Shown here: piece after piece, positions 45,415 through 63,055 of the stretch | How the letters are laid out: every line of letters starts with the position of its first letter | How positions within the stretch are numbered: position 1 is the first letter of the stretch | From: Elsinoe ampelina | Taxonomy: Eukaryota | DNA length: 64,000 bases | NCBI GenBank assembly: GCA_010093995.1 | Contig: ML992511.1 | Location: 295,917-359,916 of the forward strand | Direction of reading: 5' to 3' | Made by a program: the position numbers and the translations under genes | Notes under the pieces: model-generated | What the model was told of the DNA's origin: nothing | Seen by the model: the letters and a program-made list of their open reading frames with translations, nothing else | Databases searched by the model: none

Positions 45415-46605
45415 TGTGGCTGCTGATCACTGATGCAATGTTGTACTGGTGATCGAGTGGAATGGGCAAGGACACGACAAAGAAGTCTACTCACGGAAAA
45501 TACCTAGCACGATTCGGCAGAAGCCCCTCGCACCTCATCAGACTCTGAAGACTTGGGATTGACGTCGATGTTGAGAGCCCCGCAGTTCCTCCCCGGCTGA
45601 ATGCTTTGGGGAATCCGGTCATCTTTTCAACCGAAGCTGGGGGAGCCAAAGCCCGACGGCTAAGCTTCATTTGCCGACGGTGTTTCCGGTCGACGACGTC
45701 TGTGGGAGCATATTCTGACGAAGAGGACAGAGCCTCACTTTAGGTAATTGGGCGCACGTGAATGCTGCACCATCCAAGGTCGGATCTGGTCAGGGTTCTG
45801 CATTTCCGAAGTGGTTGCATGATGAGAGATGGGATGCCGCATGCAATCTACGCGCGACCAATTGTGGCTTGTCCAATCAGAGTCGAGGGATGGGTGAGAT
45901 GATTTCTCCACGTTCTATATTTGTCTCCAAGGGGTCCTTGAGAGTTGTGGTAGTTGAAGAAGAGATGCCACATCAAGGTCGAATCCACTTTGCAGACGAG
46001 TATTTGCCATGATTCATCAGGAACGAAAGGGGAAGACTGATCTTCAGAACCAAAGCTCGCTCGTAACTCGGACAGGCCAAGAAATCCGAATTGACAAGCA
46101 GGGTCCCTTTAGTTCTACGTCGTGACTGGACCAGCAAAGCCTCACGATTAAGCGCCGAACCGACCAAGCATCTACGCCCAGTCCGCCATCGCACATTCTG
46201 CATCCTGCCCTCATTGGCTGGCCAAGATGCTGCATCTCACTCCACCGGTCGAGCGCCCTTGGACATGCTTGGATGCTTTTGTCGACTTTATTCTTAGTAG
46301 TGTCGTTTCGCCTTTCCACCTCGATGCCTGCCAGCCACAGTGATCCTTCGACCTCCTGGCCACCGTGCGACACACAAGCTGTGTATGTGTAACGACAGCA
46401 GCAGAGCGACTCCCACAATGACTACTTGATCACAACGCTTTGAGATTGAAGGTCGAGAAAGCCTGCAAGGCACAGACACAGTCGCGACTAGGATCTGCAG
46501 AACCAGCGTGATGGACATGAATTGACTGGACAGAACCGCTGTTCGTCACACAGCCAGTCCGCGGCCATCTGCACCTTGACCGCCCGACCACAAGGCCCCC
46601 CCCCA

Positions 46606-49600
46606 ATGGCATCCCATCAATCCTTTTTCTCGCGTCGACAGGATGCCCGGCAGCCACCACTTCTGTCAACCGCCGTGGCCAACAGCATACAACACTTGGA
46701 CGTTTCCCGCGACTCTCCATACTCTCCCACTGTCCTGAGCGCTCCGTTCAGTCCTGGCCTGCCCGGTTCCCCTTCAGTGCCTACGCACTCTGGGTCCCAA
46801 TCACCCATGGCGGGGAGATCCTACCAGCCTCAGCAATGGGCAGGCACAGGTCCTGTGGGTGGCTCATATATGCCATTCAGTGAGGAGAGAAGAGGCCCTC
46901 CACGGTTGACGTTAGATGCTACTGGCATGGAGTCAAGCCTCCCATCACCGCCGCCTCCATATCACTCGCCCAGCCCCACCACAGCTCGGACCTTCCTGTC
47001 CAGCCCTGGTACGCCTTCAGGTCCACTCTCACCCAACATTGCCGTCAGTCCTGATTCTGGTCGAGGTTCTACCAATAATTCACCACAATTGACGAATCAA
47101 CCTCAATTTCCTCCCCCACCAGGAGGCACTAGGACTAGCAAGCTCTCACCTCGCAATCTTCTCAACTTATCACGACTGACGACCCGAAACAATGATAATC
47201 CTTTGCAAATACAGACGAATGTGCCTGCCGATGCACCGGCGGCACGACGAGCTCATTCTACTGGCGCAATTGGCCTGACGATCGCCTCATCAAGTCGGAG
47301 CAATGTGATGCACAGTCCTCCACAAGCACAAGCAGCCTGGCAGCCCGGCATGCCTGTACCTCCGCCGCCACCAGGTCCTCCACCTCTTGGAGCTAGGTCA
47401 CAAAGCTCTAGTCGACTACCAGACCGATCAGCTGCGCTGTCTTCACTGCCCAATCGTGGCAGTGCACCATTAACACGGCCAGATGCGGCTCCGCTCAGTC
47501 CGGTCCCTCCCACGCCGGCTGATTTCGTTGATGACGAAGACTTGTACTTCCAGAATAATGGCAGCGCCACCACCAGGCCAGTCCCTAGCCTTGCAAATCA
47601 AGACCGCAACGTCAGTCTGAACAGGCGACCGGCGCATCGAGAAGTCAGCGTTGAAGCTATACGAGATCGTCGTTCGAGATCTCGTGCAGTCAGAGAAGGC
47701 AACCTGATAGATGTCTCCCATCAAGATGGAGACTCAGAAAGCAGTGGTAGCGGAACCGGCAGCGGAAGTTCGAGGCCTGCGAATCTTGTGCTGCAAACTT
47801 CAAACATATCACCCGCGCCGCGCCAGACGCATCGGACTACACAGTCACAACCCTCTTCCGCCAAGCAGAACACTCCCGACAGACATGTCCCTCGGCCGCA
47901 GCAGCCCGGAATGCCTACGCCGCCCTATACGCCTGCGACTAACCCGCGGGGCACACCTGCTACTGGCTCTAGACCTGAGAGCGCTCAAAGAAATCACAAT
48001 AGAGATCGTTCCGCCACTTTAGACAAACCGCAAGCAACGACGCCAAACAGGAGCCAAGAGGACGACGATAGCTTCATCAACGCCAGCCTAGAGCGATTCC
48101 TGGACTTTGGTCAACATGAAGCGGCTGCTGAGTCTGACGAAGAAAGACTGACATTGTTCGCCAAATTCGTCGTTGACGAATCCCGAATTCGTCGCGCGCG
48201 ATACGCAGACTCTTTTGCCAAGATCGCCTCGGAACTGTACGATACCACTCGAGATATGTGGCGGCGGGGTGACGTTGAGCCTTCATCGGCTGCATCACAT
48301 GCCATGTCATCGCGAGACCAATCCGTAGACTCATCTGGTCTTGACAGCCGAGCACAGTCATCCGCTGCAATGCACAGCACCGCGCCTTCTGAGTCCGAGT
48401 TGACCCCAGCGACCGATACCGAGTCTTTTTGCAGTGTTCTGGAACGAGATCAAGGGAATGCCAACCAGAGTCCTTGGAACGATCGCTTCAAGCCGAGTCT
48501 CTCCCCCATTCCAAGCATGACAGTCAGTACTTATGCAGGAGACGAAGCCGACTCGCGTGGTAGATCTGCAAGTCGATGGTGGGAGGCCAGTGAAAACGGC
48601 TCGTCAGGCACTGGTGGACGACGCCTGGAGAGATCGAAGCAGGAGATCAAGTACATGAGTCTGCATCCTTCGGTCATGCAGCAAGCTCTGGAGGAGCAGC
48701 AAAAGTCTGAAGCATCAACTCCAGGAGATAGCGATTCCACAACAAAGGCATCTGCTGACGAGTACCCACCCGAGAAGGTTGGCTGGCATGAAGAGCTAGC
48801 CATTGCAGGACCTAGCCGATCGTCCTCATTTGCCAACGGGAAGCGTCCACTCAGCGGTGGTGCTCCTCCTCTACCTTCTCCATATCCAAGACCAAAACTA
48901 CCGCCCTTGGATGTGTCCAGATTAGTGACGCTTCCACCGCCATACCCACGTCACTACCCAGCAGTGAACAATTGTCACCCTCAATTAGAAGCACCTCGCA
49001 AATTGCAACGAGCTCTGGCAGATCTATCAGAGGTCAGAGAACTTCACACCGACTTCACTGAACGCGAGACCGCCTTGACTGAAGAAATCGATGAAGCCCG
49101 AAAGTCAAGAGTCCGAGGCTTCCGCGCCGGCGTACAGGGCGACATTGACGCTGGTCGGATCTCACACGCGATAGCAATAGAAGCAGATCGACGATTCCGA
49201 GCCCACGAAGCAGAGAAATCCGCCACAGCAGCTTTCGAGTCCTACGAGCGCTTCCAAAAAGACCTGTACCAACCTTCAAAAACCATCCTAGACGACAAGA
49301 TCCAATCCGCCGACGAAAGCATCAACATGATGACCCTCGCCCTCTCCTCCAGCCTCTCCAGTGGTGCCTCCGAACGCGCCCAAGTAGGCGGCGATGAAGA
49401 GCCCGAACTCCTCGAACAACTCACACTCCTCAAATGGCTCTTCGAAGCCCGTGAAACGCTCTTCAAAGAACTCCACGACCTCAACCTACTCTCATCCCGC
49501 CAATCCCGCCTCAAAGAAAAATGGTCCCCTTCCTACCGCCAACTCCCCCAACCCCAACGCGAAACCGACAACGCCCGCTGGCAAAAATCCATGCAAACCC

Positions 49601-50244
49601 TCCAAGCGACCTGGGCGGCCTCCTCCTCATCCCGCTTCCAAGACCTAAAAACCACCGTGGAGCGGCACGTCCAACGCGGCGTCGAAGCCCAGGTCTCGGC
49701 CTTCTGGGACGTCGCGCCTCAACTGTCCGAAGTCCTCTCCCGCATCCCCTGCCCGGACCCCGGTTCCCCCTCCTCGCCCCCCTCCCCCGCCACCTTGTCC
49801 AATCTAGACGACCAACTCCGGCACCTCCCCATCCTCATCCCGCCCACCGAACTCGCGGAGAACGAAGACCTCCACCGCTTCCCCGCCCGCTACCTCTACT
49901 CCACCCTCTCCCACGCGCGCAACTCCACCCGCCAGTTCGTCGACGCGCAGATCAACCTCTTGTGTCTGGAGCACGAGATCGCGACCGCGGCCATGGCGGC
50001 CGGGGTGCGCGCTATGGAGGCCGAGAGGGTGCTTGCGGGGGAGGAAGGGGGGGAGGTTGGTGTTGAGATGGAGAGGGCGAGGGAGGGGGAGGAGGGCAGG
50101 TTGACGGGGCAGTTGAAGGAGAGGGTGGGGGAGGTGGAGAGGGGGTGGGAGGAGGCGTTGGGGGGGGAGGTGGAGAGGAGGAGGGAGGTGGTTAGGGGTT
50201 TTTTGGGGAGGTGTGGGGGGTGGGAGGGGGAGGGGGAGGAGTAG
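46606..50244 (+). CDS. Large hypothetical protein, Pro/Ser-rich N-terminal half and helical C-terminal half
   Basis: Uninterrupted ORF with first ATG at 46606. Conserved-looking islands: 'DVSRLVTLPPPYPRHYPAVNNCHPQL', 'GDEEPELLEQLTLLKWLFEARE', 'QINLLCLEHE'. Confidence 0.85.
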   Translation: MASHQSFFSRRQDARQPPLLSTAVANSIQHLDVSRDSPYSPTVLSAPFSPGLPGSPSVPTHSGSQSPMAGRSYQPQQWAGTGPVGGSYMPFSEERRGPPRLTLDATGMESSLPSPPPPYHSPSPTTARTFLSSPGTPSGPLSPNIAVSPDSGRGSTNNSPQLTNQPQFPPPPGGTRTSKLSPRNLLNLSRLTTRNNDNPLQIQTNVPADAPAARRAHSTGAIGLTIASSSRSNVMHSPPQAQAAWQPGMPVPPPPPGPPPLGARSQSSSRLPDRSAALSSLPNRGSAPLTRPDAAPLSPVPPTPADFVDDEDLYFQNNGSATTRPVPSLANQDRNVSLNRRPAHREVSVEAIRDRRSRSRAVREGNLIDVSHQDGDSESSGSGTGSGSSRPANLVLQTSNISPAPRQTHRTTQSQPSSAKQNTPDRHVPRPQQPGMPTPPYTPATNPRGTPATGSRPESAQRNHNRDRSATLDKPQATTPNRSQEDDDSFINASLERFLDFGQHEAAAESDEERLTLFAKFVVDESRIRRARYADSFAKIASELYDTTRDMWRRGDVEPSSAASHAMSSRDQSVDSSGLDSRAQSSAAMHSTAPSESELTPATDTESFCSVLERDQGNANQSPWNDRFKPSLSPIPSMTVSTYAGDEADSRGRSASRWWEASENGSSGTGGRRLERSKQEIKYMSLHPSVMQQALEEQQKSEASTPGDSDSTTKASADEYPPEKVGWHEELAIAGPSRSSSFANGKRPLSGGAPPLPSPYPRPKLPPLDVSRLVTLPPPYPRHYPAVNNCHPQLEAPRKLQRALADLSEVRELHTDFTERETALTEEIDEARKSRVRGFRAGVQGDIDAGRISHAIAIEADRRFRAHEAEKSATAAFESYERFQKDLYQPSKTILDDKIQSADESINMMTLALSSSLSSGASERAQVGGDEEPELLEQLTLLKWLFEARETLFKELHDLNLLSSRQSRLKEKWSPSYRQLPQPQRETDNARWQKSMQTLQATWAASSSSRFQDLKTTVERHVQRGVEAQVSAFWDVAPQLSEVLSRIPCPDPGSPSSPPSPATLSNLDDQLRHLPILIPPTELAENEDLHRFPARYLYSTLSHARNSTRQFVDAQINLLCLEHEIATAAMAAGVRAMEAERVLAGEEGGEVGVEMERAREGEEGRLTGQLKERVGEVERGWEEALGGEVERRREVVRGFLGRCGGWEGEGEE

Positions 50245-53401: not shown

Positions 53402-54720
53402 ATGAGCTCCGCTGGTAGGCCCGTCCCTGCTACATCCACCACGTTCAACACTGACATTCCCCAGCACAATCCCGCCTGTCCCAGGTGACATCCCATCTGC
53501 GCTCATCCGAGGCTGACCTGGCACCCAACCGCAATGCGGTCCTTTCAAAGTCCCCCGACGATGTTGTCGTGACAGCCGCGTTGCGCACCCCTCTCACCAA
53601 GGGCGGAAAAGGAGGTTTCAAGGACACAGCTGCGGCCGATCTCCTGCACGGCGCCTTCGTGGCTCTTCTCGAGCGCTCAAAGGTTGTCCCATCGCTAGTC
53701 GAGGACATTGCTGTCGGCTCAGTCCTGCCACCAGGAGGTGGTGCCACTGAGTTCCGTGCCGCGGCTCTCGCAGCCGGATTCCCAGACAGCACTGGCGTCC
53801 GCTCCCTGAACAGACAATGCTCCTCTGGCCTCCAAGCCTGCGTCGACATCGCCAACGCCATCAAGGCAGGCATGATTGACATCGGCGTCGGTGCCGGCGT
53901 TGAGTCCATGAGCCAGCAATACGGCCCCGGTGCCGTCACCGAATTCTCCGAGCTCCTCGAATCCCACAAAGAAGCCGCCAACTGCAAAGTCCCCATGGGC
54001 GTCCTCTCCGAACAAATGGCCAAAGACCGCAAAGTCTCCCGCGCCTCGCAGGATGCCTTCGCCGCCAACTCGTACCAAAAAGCCATCGCCGCCCAAAAAG
54101 CCGGCCTCTTCGACGAAGAAATCGCCCCCCTCAAAGTAAAATGGACCGACCCCAAGACCGACGAGACCAAAGAAATCACCGTCAGCAAAGACGACGGCGT
54201 CCGCGAAGTCACCGCCGAGTCCCTCGGCAAAATCCGCCCCGCCTTCGCCAAAGACGGCTCCATCCACGCCGGCAACGCCTCGCAAATCTCCGACGGCGCC
54301 GCCGCCGTGCTCCTCATGCGCCGCTCCACGGCCGAGAGACTAGGCCAGACCATCCTCGGCAAGTTCGTCTCGGCGAGCATCGTCGGCGTGCCCCCTCTCC
54401 TCATGGGCATCGGGCCATGGAAAGCCATCCCCGTTGCGCTGGAGAAGGCCGGCATCGCCGTCGAGGACGTGGATATCTACGAGATCAACGAAGCGTTCGC
54501 CAGCCAGGCGCTGTGGTGCGTCAACGAGCTCAAGATCCCCATTGAAAAAGTCAACCCCAAGGGTGGCGCGATCGCGTTCGGGCATCCGTTGGGCTGCACG
54601 GGCGCGAGGCAGGTGAGCACGCTGTTGTTCGAGTTGAGGAGGAAGAAGCAGCAGATTGGTGTCACGAGTATGTGCGTGGGAACAGGCATGGGTATGGCTG
54701 CCGTTTGGGTGGCGGAGTAG
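53402..54720 (+). CDS. POT1: Peroxisomal 3-ketoacyl-CoA thiolase
   Basis: Exons 53402-53414 and 53465-54720. PTS2 'RLSQVTSHL'. Catalytic motifs: 'NRQCSSGL', 'EINEAF', 'GHPLG', 'MCVGTGMG'. Confidence 0.96.
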
Positions 54721-54836
54721 AAAAATGTACACCTCACCATCGTTTGCTCGCATCACTTCACACAAGAACCAGTTTACACGTAGACTTCGGATCGGAAAAT
54801 TTTCATCGTCCCGGGTGTCTAGCCGCGCTCGCGCAT

Positions 54837-55803
54837 CTACCGTCCTCGTCTCTGCTCCTCCTGCATCTCCTCTTCCTCCCCTTCGCTGTCGCTGGGCGGA
54901 TCCCACCCGGCTTTCTGGCGGAGTAATCTGTTTTCCTCCTTGAGGCCCGCGATCTTCTTCATGTACGGGAGCGCTTGCTCCGTCTTGTCGCGGTAGGCGA
55001 AGCGGACGTTTTCGGACACGCGTTGTAATGATGCCTGCCATGCTTGGTGCGTGAGTTGTGCTTGGACCGTCTCGTTGTGGGAGGCGGAGAGGAGGTTGAG
55101 GTAGTGCGCGTGGATGGCTGGCGGGGGGGCGTCAGTATGCTTGACTCGCTTTTTGGTTGAGAGAGAGGGGGGGAGACGGACCATTTGTTTCGGCTTCTCG
55201 CTCGTTGCATCGAGCGTGGAGAAGTTTGACCATGGCTTGCATGCCGTTCTCGTACTCTGTCACGAGCTGGCCTTGGTCGAGGTATGCTGCTTTCAAGGCC
55301 TCGATTTCTCGGTCTTTCTCTACTAATCGTGTCTGTAGCTCTGCGACGGTCTCTTCGGCGCTTTGACCTGCCCTGCATCAGTCCTAGATCTTTGCTAACG
55401 AGGATAATACCAACCATCATCTCCTCCTCCTCCTTGCCCTTCATCTTCCCCCTCTCTCTTTGATCGCTCCTTCACCTGCAGTATCTCCGTCAGTCCAATT
55501 CTCATTCCTCATGACCCGCAATCTGTCCGCCCTCTCGCAGGTCTTCCCCGTCATCACATCCCCGTCCTTGCGTCCTCACTCTCCCACGCCCCAAGCACCA
55601 GAGTATCGTACCTTCACCTTCGCGATCCCGCTTTGCAACTCTTCCCACTTTTCGCGATTCTCATGCAACAACCCGCTCAACTGCTCCACAAGCTGCCACA
55701 CATGCGCCATATCATGGTGATGGCCTGCCGACGGCATGATCGCGCTGCCGAGCGGGTATGGGGCGCCGCCGCCAGGCTGCATGCCGTTTGGGGCGGCCAT
55801 CAT
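54837..55803 (-). CDS. Small coiled-coil protein, probably SCI1/SipB (Far3/Far7/SIKE-like STRIPAK subunit), ~239 aa
   Basis: Exons 55803-55612, 55475-55415, 55367-55182, 55117-54837, with consistent phases. Segments: 'MPSAGHHHDMAHVWQLVEQLSGLLHENREKW', 'AIHAHYLNLL', 'IAGLKEENRLLRQKAGW'. The family call is from recalled resemblance, not a search. Confidence 0.65.
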
Positions 55804-58800
55804 TGCTTCTCCGCTTGGTGAGCCGTTCTCGCTGGCTGATGGTGTGGAGTGCTCTCTGCGACGGACGACTCGCGGAGTGGGTGGGGAGTCTAGGTCATCG
55901 CCGTCTTCCGCGGTGGGTGGAGTGCGGGGCTCGTTGTGATCTGGGTGGTCGAGGGGGAGGGATGTGAGCCAATTGTTGATGCGATGTGCTGGTAGTTCGG
56001 AAGCAGTATGAGCAGTGAGAAATGCAGAAGTAGGTCGAGAAGAAGTGAATGGGTCTTCAATGCCATGATGTTGAAGCTCCGCGGTCTTGAGGTCGGAAAT
56101 GACTCGTGCTAGCTTGATCTGATCTACAGCGCGAGTCAGATCATCGGTGCCAACCGCCATTTCGCGAAACTCCATGACCTTACCTTCTTCACTACCAGGG
56201 GTGGTAGGACCTTGTAACCCTGAATCTGTCGACGTGCCATTATAACGGACTTGCTCGACAGTATCACCTACGTTGCTGCACTGCCAGGTCGACGCGCGCA
56301 AGCTTGGTCGAAGGGAATGCTGCATTGCTCTTCGAACGCGGGAGCCACTGCCATCCCACAGCGGGACCTGAGCCTCGCCGGTCCTGCGCGAGAAGACGGG
56401 CGTGTAAGCGATGCTGTCCCATGAGTGCACCACATGAGACCAATTTGCAAGGACTGGATCATCCGTCATAACTTCCTCGCTGTCGGGATCTTCGATATGA
56501 TTACCAGCATTGAACTTGCGAGATTTTGCGGCCCAGTTTCTGATACGAGGTCTGGTACGCTTCACATGCAAGACATTGACATGGGCAGTGGAGACCCAGG
56601 GATTGACGGGCAGAGCTTCAACGACTGAGATTTAATGAGCGTTCTTCTATCAATACACGTAGGTCTTTTCAAGTACCTCTTCGGCGCGCACCCACGGTTC
56701 CTTCGCTCGATCTCGGTAAGCTTGATCTCCCTCGCGTCGGGGTCGGAGATCTTGCCACCCTACGTAGAGATTGGAGGGCTGGGCTTGTCACAGGACTGGC
56801 AGGACCCGGTGCTGAATCTTGCTGCTCCGCCCCGGGTGATAGCTCAGCTACTACGTCGTTGGCCGGCCTGTACCTGTTCGATTGTCTCGGTGTGGTAGGA
56901 CCTTCGTCGCTCGAGTCGGAAGTATTGCCGTCTCCTTCCAATTCTGTGATCGAAACACTGGGCGGCTGTTGTAATCTTGCCATCGGGTCTGCTGTAGCGG
57001 TAGTCGGTGAAGTCTTCACAACGGGAAGAGCTGGACCTGTGCGACCAATGCCCTCTCGCACTGGTATATTCTCTTTCCTACGCGTACCGGACTCCACCTG
57101 CCTGGCCGACCGCGAGGAGCTGGCAGTGGACCTGATGGTGTTGGGACTCACATGGGTCAAGCCTTCCGAGCCTCTGGACTGACTTGGTGCCGCCCTGATT
57201 AGATGGTTGGTAGGTGTGACGGGAGCTCTTCGAGGCGTCAGGGGATGAAGCGGTGCGTCCGCGGCTTTACGAGCAATAGCCTGCTCGTTCCGTTCCCGCT
57301 GAACACGCCCGCCAACTCCCGTGCGCACGCCTCCCTGGGAAGGTACTCGTCTCAAGTTGCGCGAAAGTTCTGCCACGGAATGCCGCTCTGTAGTGTCTGA
57401 TGCCCGTCTGATCTGCTCTTGATACATAAGCAGTCGTCCTGGTAGCTCCGGCTGTAGCGTCGTGTTTGAGCAGCCTGCTTGACGTAAGTTTTCAGCCAAT
57501 TCCGGGTCTGCCCCTTCCGCTACAATATTCATGACTTCAGAGGACTTTCTGAGGTCTTTGGGAACCTCGTCGGGTGCCTTGGTGTGTATGTTCTCTTGCC
57601 TGCGTCTCGTGGCCTTCGTGGGCGGAACTGTGCCAAACCTGCGCTCGTGGGATCCAAACAGAGACCAGCGAGTCTGCTTCTCGGGGCTCGCATTGTCTTC
57701 GTCTGGCAAACCATAGAGTCTGTTTAGCTCAGTCATTTCAACGTTTTTGTGGAAGCGTTCGGCCATTTTCAGCGCTGTATAATCATCCACCTGTGATAGC
57801 CGTTTCCTCAGACGCACAGATTCTTCCTTCATCTCCTGCCTGATAGCTCCGTAATGCATCTCTTCAGGCGGAATGCTGATCACTTCATGTTGACCTTTTT
57901 CCGGTGTAGAGACCGAGACATTCTTGCGGGGCGTGTTGGGACCTCGCAAGCTGCTCTTCCTTGCCGTCGGTGTGGTAGGACGCTCGGAGATGGGCGTCGG
58001 TTCATCGACCCTAACATCCGGAGTCTTAGCTACCTTCTGCGACCTTCTAGGTATTGCCGATACACCTTCGGACGACGTTGACACTGTCTCTGTCGAGGTA
58101 CTACCAGACGAGGATGCCGCAGTCCCTGATGTGTCGGTCTCGAGCGAAGACGTTGCAGAAATTGTGGTAGTCATTGTAGCAGTCGTTGACGCAGTACTTG
58201 AAGAATTCGGCCGTCGAACGTACAGCTCCTCGTCTGGACAGTGGTATGATGTGCGTCGCGGGTCCGCAGGATCCTCCACAGTGGCGCCCTCTAGTGTCCT
58301 ACCAGTATTCGTAGCTTCTGCTGGAGCCGTTGGATCCTGGTCCGACGCATCAGATCCAGGAATATTGGCAGTGACTGTTCGAGATTGGGCAACGTCGCCT
58401 CCAGGCCCTGAATCGACTCGCTTGCTGCCCTCGATATCTTCATTAGTCTGTCGAGCTTGAGCTTTATTGTTCTCAGTCCAGGCAGCTCTCTCGGAATCTC
58501 TGGTGGTTGGTGAGATTGCCTCGAGCTGCCACTGTATCCACCTAAAAGGATGCCAAAGAAGAGACGGACGCCTTTGTAGCCCGTTGCTGACTGGGGATTG
58601 CTGCTGCTCTGGGGCAGCACTCGTGAGTGGTGATACAGCATCCACCGATGTTGAACGAAACTATCGAACCGGTGTCGTCACAATGGATGGCCTCTTCGGT
58701 CTCGTGACTTGCTGTCGAGCTCGAGCGTTCGCAGGGGTCGAGCTTTCGATAGACTCTGGCTGATCAGGAACACTTGCAGACCTGTCCATCTGCTTTGCAA

Positions 58801-60775
58801 CTTCGGCTGCTTCATGCCTCTCCTTATTCAGCCGGGCTTGTCGAAAGAAGTCACTGTCGCTGCTCCCTCTTCTGGCTTTGGCACTGTTGGCTTCAGGTGA
58901 TGGAGCTCCGTCTGTACGACGCTGCGCAGTAGTGCTCCGCGAGTTGCCATGAGATATGTATCGAGATGGCTCATGGCTGGTAGTTCCTGACGCTCGTACA
59001 GCAGGAATTCGCTGGATGCGCGGCGATTCCGCAACAGATCGGTGCCGAGGTCGACCACCAGCTGGCAGTAAGGAGTCGAGCATGGATTTGCGAGGTGGTG
59101 TGACCTCGAGGGCGAAGCTGTCCAGTTCGCCCCTCGGTAGGAAAGGATTTTGCGTTCCTTGAAGCCCTAGATGCATTGAGCACGCATCATCATGCGATCG
59201 CTTCTTTCCCGCCTTGACGACAAGGGGCGAGTCCCTGAGAAGCACTACTGATTTCTCATCGTCGGCGTCTCGCTCAGTCCCATCAGAGGTCGATTGAGTT
59301 GACGAATGAAAAGATGGAGACCGGCCGTGCGGTAAGCAGTCGTAATAGAAAGGTCTATCCCGCGACGTCGCTTCTCCGAACTTGACCATATCTTCTGGCC
59401 GGCTTGCGCTTGACAAGGGAGCATAGCCACTCGTGGGAGTCATCGATGACGAATGAGCAGCTGGAGGCTCATCTCTGGTAGTATCCCCACTCGTCTGCGA
59501 TGTACTGGACTGCTTCATCAGGGGCTGGTCTGGATTGTAAGTACTCGGCTTCAGATACTCCAATGGCGTCGCATCATCTACCGATGGATCTGGGGGAAGC
59601 TCGGCAGGAGATGGGACGGGCTTTGTAGCAGGAGAAGGTGGCGAGTCCTCAAAGACATTTTCTTCCGAGACTTGTGTCCATTTGACCGTGCCAAAAGGCG
59701 CTTCATATGGCTTCTTGACCGTGACCGGGCGCTTTGACACTGCACTACAAGCAAGTGTCGCGAAATCCTTGACATCGATCCCGTGTTCAGGCAAGGTACG
59801 ATTGTCCATCCCAGTGAGCTGAGAAGACAGCACTCCAGAGTCTTCCGCACGTCCCGGCTTGTGATAAGTACCAGAGGGGACCTGACGCACCGGGTCGGAA
59901 GGGGAGACGTTTGGGGGATATAGCACATTCCGAGCGCCGGCCTCTGCAAAGACTCGTTCAGACCTCTTGCCATGAGCGTGATGATGTGCCCCTTCTCTTC
60001 TCTCTGACGCTGGCACCTTGAAAGGTGTCTTTTTGGTGGGACTGTCTGGGCTCGTGGCAAGGATCTCTGTGATCTCCTCGTCAGTAAGATTGATGGGGGG
60101 TTTTGGATCAGGAAACTGCGGAATTGTAATTGGAGGTGGGGCGATACGCTTGCTGATCTCAGGGCCTTGAGGACGTGCTGTGATTTCACGTCTCTCTCTG
60201 GAGCGAGTTGCTGTGTGCGTGCCCTGCTCGGATGATCGACTACGGCGTTGCTTGGATGCAGCAGTCTGGAGATCATCTTGTTTCTTGTGCTGAGTCGGGT
60301 CCGAGGTCGAATTACGCTCAGGTGAAGGGCTAGCGGACTCCTACGCATCTGCTTCCTTCCTACCAGCAACCGGTGCTTGTCCTGTCTGCCGCTGCTTCTC
60401 TAAAAATTCTGAGGGAGCGCGCTTTCCCACATTTGGTCGGCCGATTCGCATGCGTGGTCCCGCTCTACTCGAGCCTCGATATCTTGTGTGTCGAGGAATG
60501 TCTTGCGGCGATGATCCTCTCCTTCCCATTGTTCCGTGAGTGACTTGATCACGACGAGGTGAATGTGGTATTGCGGTGTCCCTCCTGGTAGTATTCTCCG
60601 GTGCGTGCATAGGAACGGACGGACTACCTGCTGGCCCTTTGGGAGCCGATCGCGTATCTTGGTCGACTGGTACCGCGCCTCGGGCTGGCGAGTTCATGGC
60701 CGCTGTGTCGACTATCATTGAGTCGAGGAGCAATTCAAGCTCACTGTCCGAGCTTTCCAGGTCTATGTTATCCAT
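55804..60775 (-). CDS. Long low-complexity reading frame with two in-frame TAG codons, fused in frame to the SCI1-like gene (edited/readthrough isoform or pseudogene)
   Basis: ORFs 60802-60341, 60016-58661 and 58645-56669 share one frame, separated only by TAG at 60343-60341 and 58663-58661. Intron 56676-56625 links them to the frame that runs into ATG 55803. Confidence 0.6.
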
Positions 60776-61123: not shown

Positions 61124-62676
61124 TCAATCTTCCCGCCCTGTCTTGCTCCTTCCCCAAACTTCGTCTGCAGTCGACTTGTCCTTCGACTCTGGGAGGAACA
61201 TGGAGATGAAAATGACCGACAGCAAGGCTACTATCGCGAAAATGAAGTAGGTCTTGCCACCTCCAAGCGCTTGATTGACGATGGGAAAGAATTGAGCAAC
61301 GACAAATGTTGATATCCAATTCGCAGCCAATGCCCAGGACTGCGTTGATCCTACGGCTTCCGCGTTGACAAGTTCTGAGGACAAGATGAACGGTATTGGT
61401 CCAAGACCAAGAGCGAATCCTACCACATAGGTGACGACCGAGACAGCCGACAGAACAGGAATGTGTCTCTGTATGCCAATGCCAAGTAGTAGCGAAGATA
61501 CACCCATGACAGATATGCTCACAATGAGACAAGTTTTTCTGCCGAAGCGATCTGTGAGTGGAGCAGAACCAGCAGTGACGAATACATTGAGCGCCGCAAC
61601 GGCGACATTGAGCAATGCTGAATTCGCAGCAAGTAGGTCGGACAGCACGTCGACGCCATACATGACAACACTGTTTATTCCGGTCAATTGTTGGGCGAGC
61701 ATGACGACCATGACAACCAGTACTGCTCGTCGAGAGTCAGGATGGCGAAGAACTTGGAACGGTCCGAGCACCTCGCGAGCCACGGATTTCGAGATAGATT
61801 TGTTGCGGTCCACACGTTCATCGTCTGGCACGGCAGCACTAGATGGTCCGTTTTCTGCGCTGTGAAGAAGAGTCTCCTCTTCGGCATCTTGCGTCTCTCG
61901 ACTCGAGATGCCCCAGCCCTTGACCTCCGCATCAACGTCTGCAGCATGTCCCCTCAGCTTGCGTAGAATGCGCCTGGCAGGGGTCGGTTTCCCATGATCC
62001 GCGAGCCACTTTGGGCTTTCCTGTCCTGCGAGCAAAAGGCCAACGGCTTGTAGTGCTCCAAACATACCGGCAGCTGCCAGGATCATTCGCCAGGATTGAC
62101 CTTTGCTCAAGAAAAGCCCCAACACTTGTGTAGTAAGGATGCCAACATTCGTCATGACTTGCGTGAATGCACCAAAGAAACCCTTCTCTTTCGGCGGTGA
62201 CAGCTCCGAGATATATATGGGCACAACTACCAGGGCAGCTCCAGCTCCTATTCCACTGATAAAGCGTCCAACGGTGAAAGTACCAATGTTCATCGTGAGA
62301 GCTTCAAAGACCGGTCCAAGAATGTGGAAGACGGTTGTGCCGAGCATCGTCTTATATCTTCCGTAGCTAGCGGACAGGGGGCCAGCACCCAATGCTCCAC
62401 ATAGACCACCTAGAGTGAAGATCGAGGAGACGAGCCCTACTTCCGCCGAAGTCATTGGTATGCATTGCGGAAGATTCGCGTCCACCCCTGTAGCTGCTCG
62501 GGTTCGACATGTGATGACTGCGATAGGTGCGTTGAGTTCGGACTGCCCAAGCTTATGAGTGAAGCTCTCCCTAGCAATGACATAAGACCTACCAGGTGAT
62601 AACCAAACAAGAATGGCCCTATGGTCGCGATCAAGAGCACGAAGACGAAGTACAGCGTGATATCCTTGAGTGCCAT
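61124..62676 (-). CDS. MFS sugar porter (GLUT-like; Vps73/Ybr241c-like)
   Basis: Exons 62676-62593 and 62542-61124. Motifs: 'GPFLFGYHLSELNAP', 'GRFISGIGAG', 'IYISELSP', 'QQLTGIN', 'DRFGRK', 'GLGPIPF', 'PESK'. Confidence 0.92.
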
Positions 62677-63055
62677 GGTCGCTGGTAGTGCTGAGTCAAG
62701 GACAAACACGAAGATTGAGGGTGCAGTCACGATCGACCTCTAGTCGAATCATGCGGATTGCAAGGACAGGGATATCCAAGGTGACAGAAAGGTAACAGCA
62801 TTGTGACGCCGTTGGATGAGGGGGTTGAGCGGCTGTTTTCCCAAACAGGAAATGCCGCGCATCTCTAACCTCATCCGCCGGTCGATGTCCACAGCGGGCA
62901 TAAACAAACGACGATAATTCGCATGCTGCCACACGTCATGGATATACTTCCAACTCGGACAAAATAAATCTTGTATCACTGTATAGCTATTGTGGAATCG
63001 AGTGGGTCATTATGGTTCATGACATCTACATCCTTGACCACCCACTCGGTCCGTG

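Follow-up and report, generated by a model that had tools for sequence, protein, structure and literature searches.

How does a fungal gene come to carry a reading frame of 1,858 codons that is interrupted only by two in-frame UAG codons? The question is raised by the minus strand of a 64,000-nucleotide (nt) stretch of Elsinoe ampelina DNA (contig ML992511.1, positions 295,917 to 359,916; the window), where a long frame opens at ATG 60775, meets two TAG codons (TAG1 and TAG2) and ends in a small coiled-coil open reading frame (ORF). An earlier interpretation made from the letters of the DNA, here called the sequence-only reading, had proposed that these codons gate a giant isoform of a gene related to SCI1, a subunit of STRIPAK (the complex of striatin-interacting phosphatase and kinase). 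The presence of two in-frame TAGs in a long open frame was confirmed. The anatomy of the gene and its comparison with relatives are, as judged from sequence, such as a premature stop that is maintained and gated would show, for TAG2 at least. Conditional recoding of the UAGs, preferably by an editing-type process, is the explanation that we favour, with somewhat less than even confidence; bypass of the stops and its mechanism are what we infer from these patterns. We regard the locus as a good candidate that falls short of a demonstrated case. The fungus may recode its stop codons or translate through them, which is unreported in its class, or the gene may simply be undergoing truncation.

Translation of the minus strand from ATG 60775 gave 144 codons (ORF A), TAG1, 559 codons (ORF B), TAG2 and 661 further codons (ORF C) up to a GT at 56676. 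The sequence-only reading had described a frame of about 4.1 kilobases with only two stops, both TAG, and the translation and the stop counts bear this out. Over the 1,366 codons the long frame contains two stops, whereas the other two frames of the same strand contain 34 and 58, so its openness lies far beyond chance. The three ORFs are all in one frame, with zero frameshifts. The translated context is '...KEADA*ESASP...' at TAG1 and '...TTPVR*FRSTS...' at TAG2, and the next stop of the frame after TAG2 is a TGA at 56671-56669, just inside intron 1. As had also been noticed, neither TAG is followed by a nearby in-frame ATG; the first methionine is reached 178 codons past TAG1, and past TAG2 the distance is 163 codons. 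All of the first six ATGs downstream of 60900 belong to the long frame. ORF A has no protein annotation of its own. In the whole window there are 12 single-stop junctions between same-frame ORFs of at least 120 codons, and those at TAG1 (179/559 codons) and TAG2 (559/663 codons) are the largest; the other junctions examined (39756, 37794, 43750 and 54342) face long ORFs on the opposite strand. The complete spliced frame, from ATG 60775 to the TAG at 54839-54837, comprises 1,858 codons including both TAGs, plus the stop (5,577 nt). Apart from the two TAGs, its 1,856 sense codons are free of any further stop or frameshift.

Assembled contigs of three sequencing runs (X1 to X3) were 100% identical to the window and lacked introns. 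The runs carried no RNA label on record; the absence of introns indicates that the contigs derive from RNA. Such contigs report the majority letter only, minority variants being dropped, and the source tissues of the runs are not given. Record 1 of X1 (5,819 nt, 0 differences) extends from 59671 down to 54000, straight through TAG2, and skips five introns. Record 2 of X1 is a separate low-depth contig (59900-60534, depth 8) that passes TAG1 unaltered, and a third X1 contig goes on from 60534 beyond 61500. Uncovered were 59672-59899 in X1, most of 56041-58968 in X2 and X3, and TAG2 in X6, which represents a relative 92-97% identical to the window and was compared at its listed differences only. 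Record 18 of X6 does extend over TAG1, where none of the listed differences falls; this is not counted here as evidence.

The RNA contigs also showed the exon structure downstream of ORF C. The sequence-only reading had placed a 52-nt intron there, followed by an exon. An intron does follow ORF C and the frame is kept, but the RNA contig skips 55 nt bounded by GT..CG. The canonical 52-nt GT..AG alternative would end at 56625 (AG at 56626-56625), 3 nt earlier, and both versions are frame-keeping; the GT..CG end is possibly an unusual 3' splice site, a 3-nt strain difference, or an alignment or assembly quirk. The donor region of this intron encodes the conserved '...ARRRGT*' end of the Elsinoe batatas and Sphaceloma murrayae protein models. 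A second intron of 60 nt had been overlooked because it is in frame and stop-free. The 55-nt intron 1 and this additional intron bring the spliced total, previously put at 5,640 nt, down to 5,577 nt. The proposed in-frame joining of the exon to the small coiled-coil ORF was borne out, the X1 mRNA contig being unspliced over TAG2 and spliced into that ORF. In this D region there are 0 in-frame stops versus 8 and 10 off-frame, and the spliced frame beyond TAG2 runs for 1,153 codons to the TAG at 54839-54837.

A short isoform had likewise been predicted, and a shorter transcript form was seen. Its contigs, from two runs of one study, begin at 56040 (X2 record 5) and 56034 (X3 record 9) and contain the complete 239-codon ORF; contig ends are weak evidence for a transcription start. 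These contigs fit a shorter transcript encoding a 239-codon protein from ATG 55803. The leader of this shorter form includes a two-codon upstream ORF (ATG 55898; 55892-55898, minus strand), 95 nt ahead of ATG 55803.

The small ORF (ATG 55803, 239 codons, ending at TAG 54839-54837) gave one clue to its identity. Among the named Atlas clusters, its last exon lay closest to one in which 54% of members have PF05769 SIKE (score 0.90; 189 shared features), and at rank 3 stood an Ascomycota cluster of 285 amino acids with SIKE in 15% of members. SIKE is known as SCI1 in Sordaria and SipB in Aspergillus, according to the available portion of a review (PMC8226480). The first exon had no usable Atlas match. 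Pfam searches with E up to 10, run on exon pieces and not on the spliced protein, gave no SIKE match; exon 4 gave weak coiled-coil-type matches only, below the cut-off. These matches and the length of 239 codons are compatible with the SIKE/SCI1 type, a small coiled-coil protein that binds SLMAP/PRO45 and striatin at the nuclear envelope. A PDB sequence search with the last exon returned 3 weak, irrelevant matches. The SCI1 homology suggested by the sequence-only reading has therefore gained one weak lead from the last-exon cluster but no Pfam SIKE match on the exon pieces, and we take the assignment of the small ORF to SIKE/SCI1, based on one Atlas match, as a reasonable lead.

Relatives of the long protein are few. 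An exhaustive HMMER search with 1,200 residues of the frame, TAG being translated as tryptophan (W), matched only 5 proteins among 1.84 billion representatives. Two of these are the deposited models of the source genome itself, split at TAG2: P0003 (M323 to TAG2) and P0002 (M868 to the unspliced ...RRRGT end). The other three, together with one of the 3 proteins found in a word-based search, are E. fawcettii KAF4554822.1, E. australis TKX20540.1 (a cluster member), S. murrayae PNS16680.1 and E. batatas KAG8627001.1, which is 82% identical. Elsinoe belongs to the Myriangiales, Dothideomycetes. The sequence-only reading had attached special weight to the case of a Dothideomycete host, and by its named relatives the host indeed lies in Elsinoe. 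Word-based searches with residues 1-1366 and 1-704, in which about 8,000 word-richest candidates were scored, gave no match and also missed the relatives known from HMMER. A single-protein query of metagenome contigs gave 287 pattern matches, none confirmed, and Pfam gave no match for the ORF A-D pieces or for protein P0001. By these comparisons the extension is a family-specific, mostly low-complexity protein with conserved islands, confined to Elsinoaceae.

The conserved islands include the sequence immediately behind the stops. The best motif of the family (residues 239-297) sits behind TAG1 and ahead of residue 323, the earliest in-frame ATG past that stop, and is identical at 48/59 positions to E. 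fawcettii and at 42/59 to E. australis; the stretch after it scores 85/288 and 58/262, respectively. Residues 706-867, from TAG2 to the first in-frame ATG, contain 0 stops (off-frame 1 and 7) and 0 ATGs, and are identical to E. australis at 55 of 125 positions, compared with 69 of 221 over the next 283 residues. Short motifs are kept across all five species, including in the ATG-less stretches right after both TAGs. At the N-terminus of ORF A, 13 of 31 residues match the E. australis model P0007. The signs of a decaying pseudogene, namely several disabling changes and loss of constraint on both sides, were not found, the two TAGs being the only such changes in 1,858 codons; a very young pseudogene is possible. 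Should TAG2 date back to the divergence from E. fawcettii, the start-less codons after it have been preserved as a coding region, and the stop must be passed. From these alignments we think that TAG2, at least, is probably old and maintained rather than accidental.

What do the relatives have at the TAG2 codon? E. australis TKX20540.1, the N-terminus of which resembles ORF A, spans the site as ...PKRLSIVTEPIR-W-FSRTLSDAVSPLT, and the E. fawcettii model ends there. The sequence-only reading had allowed that the TAGs might be private to one isolate. TAG2 is not private, whereas TAG1 lies in a region where the relatives are unalignable. Within ORF B the identity is 36% between the source genome and E. 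fawcettii, 29% between the source genome and E. australis, and 32% between E. fawcettii and E. australis. These values make a single old W-to-stop change the simplest history, placed on the branch leading to the source genome, E. batatas and E. fawcettii. The TAG2 stop would then be shared by descent.

Tryptophan recurs opposite other breaks in this family. Four stops or ORF ends of one genome can be aligned to a residue of another; three of them face W (TAG2 and the ends of P0009 and P0008) and the fourth (...LRKA) faces G. P0009 and P0008 are ORF calls on other contigs that fall in the E. australis cluster. Over its 328 residues P0009 matches the NCBI model with 100% identity; it ends after ...NSRQRS where P0008 (90% identical) has W, and P0008 ends after ...TKRS where the NCBI model has W. 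Tryptophan codons account for 12 of the 103 transition paths to a stop in the gene, which gives P=0.006 for three out of four, a post hoc figure derived from the proteins of the relatives; should the P0009 case be the intron placed by the NCBI model, P=0.038 for two out of three. UAG readthrough inserts mainly glutamine, tyrosine or lysine. The W bias is such as UAG-to-UGG editing permits, and would fit that process better than mutation alone or UAG readthrough.

Two further features of these models were observed. Within the E. australis cluster (P0007, P0008, P0009 and P0005) the NCBI model skips about 20 residues at ...NSRQRS, as if an intron had been laid over the stop. The ...LRKA end is common to the E. 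australis NCBI model and a Logan ORF, and the source genome and E. batatas continue with G.

We propose that the locus would be one long gene of an Elsinoe-type Dothideomycete, in which a mostly disordered protein of ~1,620 residues (ORFs A-D) is fused in frame to a small SIKE/SCI1-like subunit that would also be made alone, from the shorter transcript. The UAGs would act as conditional gates. In most RNA, translation would stop at them and the long form would be off; under some condition they would be recoded, giving either the protein of all 1,858 codons or just the portion that follows TAG2. The likeliest recoding would be adenosine-to-inosine (A-to-I)-type editing of UAG to UIG, read as UGG (tryptophan), as at premature stops in Sordariomycetes. 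We favour recoding because relatives have W or a stop at TAG2 and because conserved, ATG-less coding sequence lies behind both TAGs. A stronger version, in which Elsinoe would possess its own stage-specific UAG-to-UGG recoding, a further origin of fungal A-to-I mRNA editing next to Sordariomycetes and Pezizomycetes, gating the giant, family-specific N-terminal extension of a STRIPAK subunit and with W and stop toggling at several sites of the gene among species and strains, seems to us rather unlikely.

Several sequence features agree with restorative editing. The UAGs are premature stops in an otherwise intact, transcribed ORF. A sense codon, mostly W, in some relatives together with a stop in others was found for TAG2 only, the codons being inferred from proteins. 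According to the accessible part of PMC10776026, TGG is the main source of edited premature TAGs, which appear repeatedly at one site in separate lineages and undergo loss and regain. The preferred flanks of edited sites are U at -1 and A or G at +1 and +3, as stated in a review; TAG1 and TAG2 both have U at -1 and G at +1, and the +3 position is A at TAG1 and U at TAG2. Both TAG adenosines are situated in small hairpin loops of predicted RNA folds that are no better than those of shuffled sequences.

Other sources of the stops were considered. The sequence-only reading had found no convincing intron that would remove the TAGs, and this stood: the scan returned no frame-keeping GT-AG intron with a usable donor over either TAG, only GC-donor candidates, nearly all lacking a branch motif, and the RNA contigs are unspliced there. 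It had also offered changes of the repeat-induced point mutation (RIP) type as an alternative. RIP was rejected as the source of the TAGs, the indices of the gene (TpA/ApT 0.57; (CpA+TpG)/(ApC+GpT) 1.22) being close to those of the rest of the window. The G+C content by codon position was not diagnostic.

A number of observations weigh against recoding by editing. The X1 contigs show the genomic A at both TAGs (majority letter only), X2 and X3 having no cover at these sites, and no edited or read-through product was seen in the X1 contigs, the only RNA cover of the TAGs. The gap in X1 at 59672-59899 leaves RNA continuity from ATG 60775 to the long contig unsupported at that point. The +3 position of TAG2 is U, which is not preferred. 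Four of four folds around the TAGs were no better than shuffled sequences (z 0.09 to 0.85), and the chance of both stops being TAG is ~0.16-0.17, which is not significant. TAG1 is without comparative support. The codons of the relatives were read from proteins or model ends; in E. fawcettii, TGA or TAA may take the place of TAG as the stop, and for E. batatas and the E. australis strains the comparison rests on the starts and ends of models or ORF calls. Within ORF A, the 4 synonymous and 5 non-synonymous differences from X6 are compatible with weak or no constraint.

The class of the host, too, argues against the known editing system. A-to-I editing of mRNA has been shown in Sordariomycetes and Pyronema, classes other than Sordariomycetes and some Pezizomycetes being stated as open, and genome-wide editing was found in neither Aspergillus nidulans nor Botrytis cinerea, as far as the available text of PMC11156358 reports. 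The machinery comprises short isoforms of Tad2/Tad3 with an interacting Ame1. The group that described it puts the origin of the Tad3-Ame1 interaction, on which mRNA editing in fungi depends, in Sordariomycetes (PMC11087585, accessible portion). Premature stops of this kind also occur in single species of other classes, where the part of PMC10776026 at hand describes editing as 'yet to be determined'. Our literature search on Dothideomycetes or Elsinoe and RNA editing, which covered unaccented spellings and main texts as far as these were accessible, found no report of editing.

Of the rival explanations, ordinary truncation survives best, and we consider it possible, although on the whole unlikely. 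It holds that a fast-evolving, dispensable or modular extension is being lost or shortened independently by nonsense mutations in several Elsinoe lineages, and that only the small SIKE/SCI1-like product matters. The short-form contigs, which begin at 56034-56040 in two runs of one study, carry the whole 239-codon ORF. The models of the relatives break at varied points: that of E. australis ends ...LRKA, that of S. murrayae starts near residue 297, and there are further E. australis-type ORF ends. Two nonsense changes and no frameshift would suit a pseudogene that is ~1% diverged, by our own estimate. The family is limited to Elsinoaceae and is mostly low-complexity, and mRNA editing is unreported in Dothideomycetes in the literature as accessible to us. 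Among the differences listed for X6, ORF A has 4 synonymous and 5 non-synonymous codon changes, plus an in-frame 3-nt insertion. Several points stand against truncation. The TAG2 codon is precisely where the model of E. fawcettii stops, for which we estimate a chance of ~1-2% per stop (103-459 one-step paths), and three of the four alignable stops face W. There is no other stop or frameshift in the 1,856 sense codons, and motifs are kept in all five species, including right after both TAGs. Among the differences listed for X6, ORF C (57516-57856) has 5 synonymous and 3 non-synonymous codon changes. Finally, the long spliced mRNA was assembled as a mature transcript.

Old gene fission is considerably less probable. 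Here TAG2 would have split the gene into two working genes, the protein of the first ending at TAG2 and the second gene (C-D-SCI1, 991 codons from M868) being translated from a transcript or start codon of its own, and TAG1 would be a later truncation. The NCBI models of the source genome are split in just this way (P0003 and P0002), the E. batatas model starts after TAG2, and both flanks of TAG2 are still open, as expected of two working pieces. No conserved start accompanies the split, however. The first ATG lies 163 codons past TAG2, the start methionine of E. batatas aligns with a residue other than methionine, and M868 is preceded by 162 codons back to TAG2 that contain no stop and show the best conservation with E. 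australis (55/125). The X1 contig is moreover continuous over TAG2 from 59671. In a transcript starting near this position the first long ORF opens at 59518 and closes at TAG2, and scanning ribosomes would stay short of the downstream part, including M868, unless TAG2 is passed.

Plain UAG readthrough, in which a fraction of ribosomes would insert a residue and yield little full-length protein, shares the anatomical evidence for recoding and would work without an editing machinery, none having been reported in the class. We rate it as improbable, a shade more so than fission. Readthrough is favoured by contexts such as UGA CUA and UAG CAR YYA, and the contexts found here (UAG GAG UCC at TAG1, UAG UUU CGU at TAG2) match neither. 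No stable downstream structure above shuffles was found within 61 nt of the TAGs. Two successive events would leave very little product, and the W bias (three of four) better fits UAG-to-UGG editing. That the TAGs are assembly or sequencing errors, or intronic, is very improbable, as independent RNA-derived contigs carry both, the deposited annotation splits at TAG2, intron candidates are lacking and the E. australis peptide motif continues over the TAG2 codon.

Conditional recoding, the explanation that we favour, would give the locus a wider interest. It offers two precise adenosines in a Dothideomycete plant pathogen, with a comparative pattern like that at proven restorative editing sites. 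If editing does take place, it would represent a further origin of fungal mRNA editing, linked to STRIPAK, a central regulator of fungal development. If it does not, the gene would be a clear case of a long disordered extension on a conserved subunit that has been truncated in several lineages. In either case, the gene has been split or patched in different ways in the models deposited for five species.

The features of the gene are collected in the Table. On its downstream side, X1 record 1 and X3 record 9 run unbroken from the coiled-coil gene into a convergent thiolase gene (plus strand, 53455-54720; Pfam Thiolase_N/C) over 54000-55117, which indicates that the 3' ends of the two genes overlap or abut. 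On the upstream side, the first 80 codons of ORF A lie on one X1 contig (60534-62752; 2,219 nt, depth 70) together with a sugar-transporter gene (61124-62695, Pfam Sugar_tr), and the adjoining contig (60534-59900) has a depth of 8. This arrangement could reflect either a transporter transcript whose long 3' tail covers the beginning of ORF A or two abutting transcripts. Elsewhere in the window, another long ORF on the plus strand (46492-50244; 1,250 codons, no Pfam match) possibly encodes a second large disordered protein.

Table. Features of the long gene, in order of transcription, and state of the TAG2 site in the source window and relatives
Feature	Position	Strand	Remarks
Start ATG	60773..60775	-	Context ATCATGG, A at -3, G at +4; upstream in-frame stop 60883-60881
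ORF A, 144 codons	60344..60775	-	In-frame stops 0 vs 5 and 7 off-frame; covered by X1 contig records 2 and 3
TAG1, codon 145	60341..60343	-	GCG TAG GAG; unaltered in X1 contig record 2 (59900-60534, depth 8)
ORF B, 559 codons	58664..60340	-	In-frame stops 0 vs 9 and 28 off-frame; holds best-conserved motif of the family (residues 239-297)
TAG2, codon 705	58661..58663	-	CGA TAG TTT; X1 contig record 1 passes it unspliced and unaltered
ORF C to splice donor	56677..58660	-	Residues 706-867 without in-frame ATG or stop
Intron 1	56622..56676	-	55 nt, GT..CG; skipped in RNA contig (joint 56621/56677)
Exon D1	56184..56621	-	Frame continues
Intron 2	56124..56183	-	60 nt, GT..AG; in frame, stop-free (joint 56123/56184)
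5' ends, short-form contigs	56034..56040	-	X2 record 5 at 56040, X3 record 9 at 56034; two runs, one study
Exon D2	55612..56123	-	Includes the first coding exon of the small coiled-coil ORF, into whose ATG (55803) it runs
Intron 3	55476..55611	-	136 nt, GT..AG; three runs
Intron 4	55368..55414	-	47 nt, GT..AG; three runs
Intron 5	55118..55181	-	64 nt, GT..AG; three runs
Last exon of coiled-coil ORF	54837..55117	-	Terminal TAG 54839-54837; among listed X6 differences, 4 synonymous and 1 non-synonymous
TAG2 site, source window			...RPKRPSIVTTPVR-TAG-FRSTSVDAVSPLT
TAG2 site, E. australis			...RPKRLSIVTEPIR-W-FSRTLSDAVSPLT
TAG2 site, E. fawcettii KAF4554822.1			Model ends ...PRLSIVTHSIR, one codon before, that is, exactly at TAG2
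TAG2 site, E. batatas			Model begins ~70 residues downstream
TAG2 site, S. murrayae			Model passes through a diverged, shorter version of the region

How does the locus compare with known systems? It has two UAGs in one gene, as does PUK1, which reportedly also carries two (A1831/A1834). With the sexual-stage-edited premature stop codon (PSC) genes of Fusarium graminearum and Neurospora, among them PUK1, AMD1 and a set of 71 PSC genes, it shares in-frame UAGs in an intact, transcribed ORF, as far as those genes are described in the accessible parts of the reports (PMC10776026, PMC5496914, PMC11156358). As in edited PSC genes so described, the ancestral or relative codon at TAG2 is W; a second species also shows a stop at this position, and a third has a sense codon. 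The fused ORF, by its one weak lead, is homologous to a STRIPAK subunit governing the development of fruiting bodies in other fungi, which resembles the setting of edited PSC genes as those texts present it. Unlike the edited PSC genes reported there, the gene belongs to a Dothideomycete (Myriangiales), a member of neither of the two classes in which editing has been shown, and no A-to-G change was seen in the X1 contigs. The gated part differs as well, being a family-specific disordered extension on a conserved subunit that is also expressed alone.

CHE1 of F. graminearum offers a second comparison. Like the locus described here it has a conserved premature stop, which in CHE1 is corrected by hyphal editing under stress, according to the available portion of PMC11169179. 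Editing of CHE1 outside the sexual stage shows that such gates need not be confined to that stage. In contrast to the gene described here, CHE1 resides in a Sordariomycete with known machinery, again according to the text at hand.

The small 239-codon coiled-coil protein, through its SIKE Atlas cluster, resembles SCI1 of Sordaria macrospora, SipB of Aspergillus nidulans and human SIKE1 and FGFR1OP2, as these are presented in the accessible part of the review (PMC8226480). It differs from SCI1, SipB and SIKE1 in the ~1,620 extra N-terminal residues of the long form; the portion of that review at hand mentions no such isoform, and no search was aimed at long isoforms. With unitary pseudogenes and truncated alleles, finally, the locus shares two nonsense codons in a long ORF. 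Unlike unitary pseudogenes, it has no more disabling changes, the position of a stop is common to a distant relative, and conserved coding sequence lies right behind the stops.

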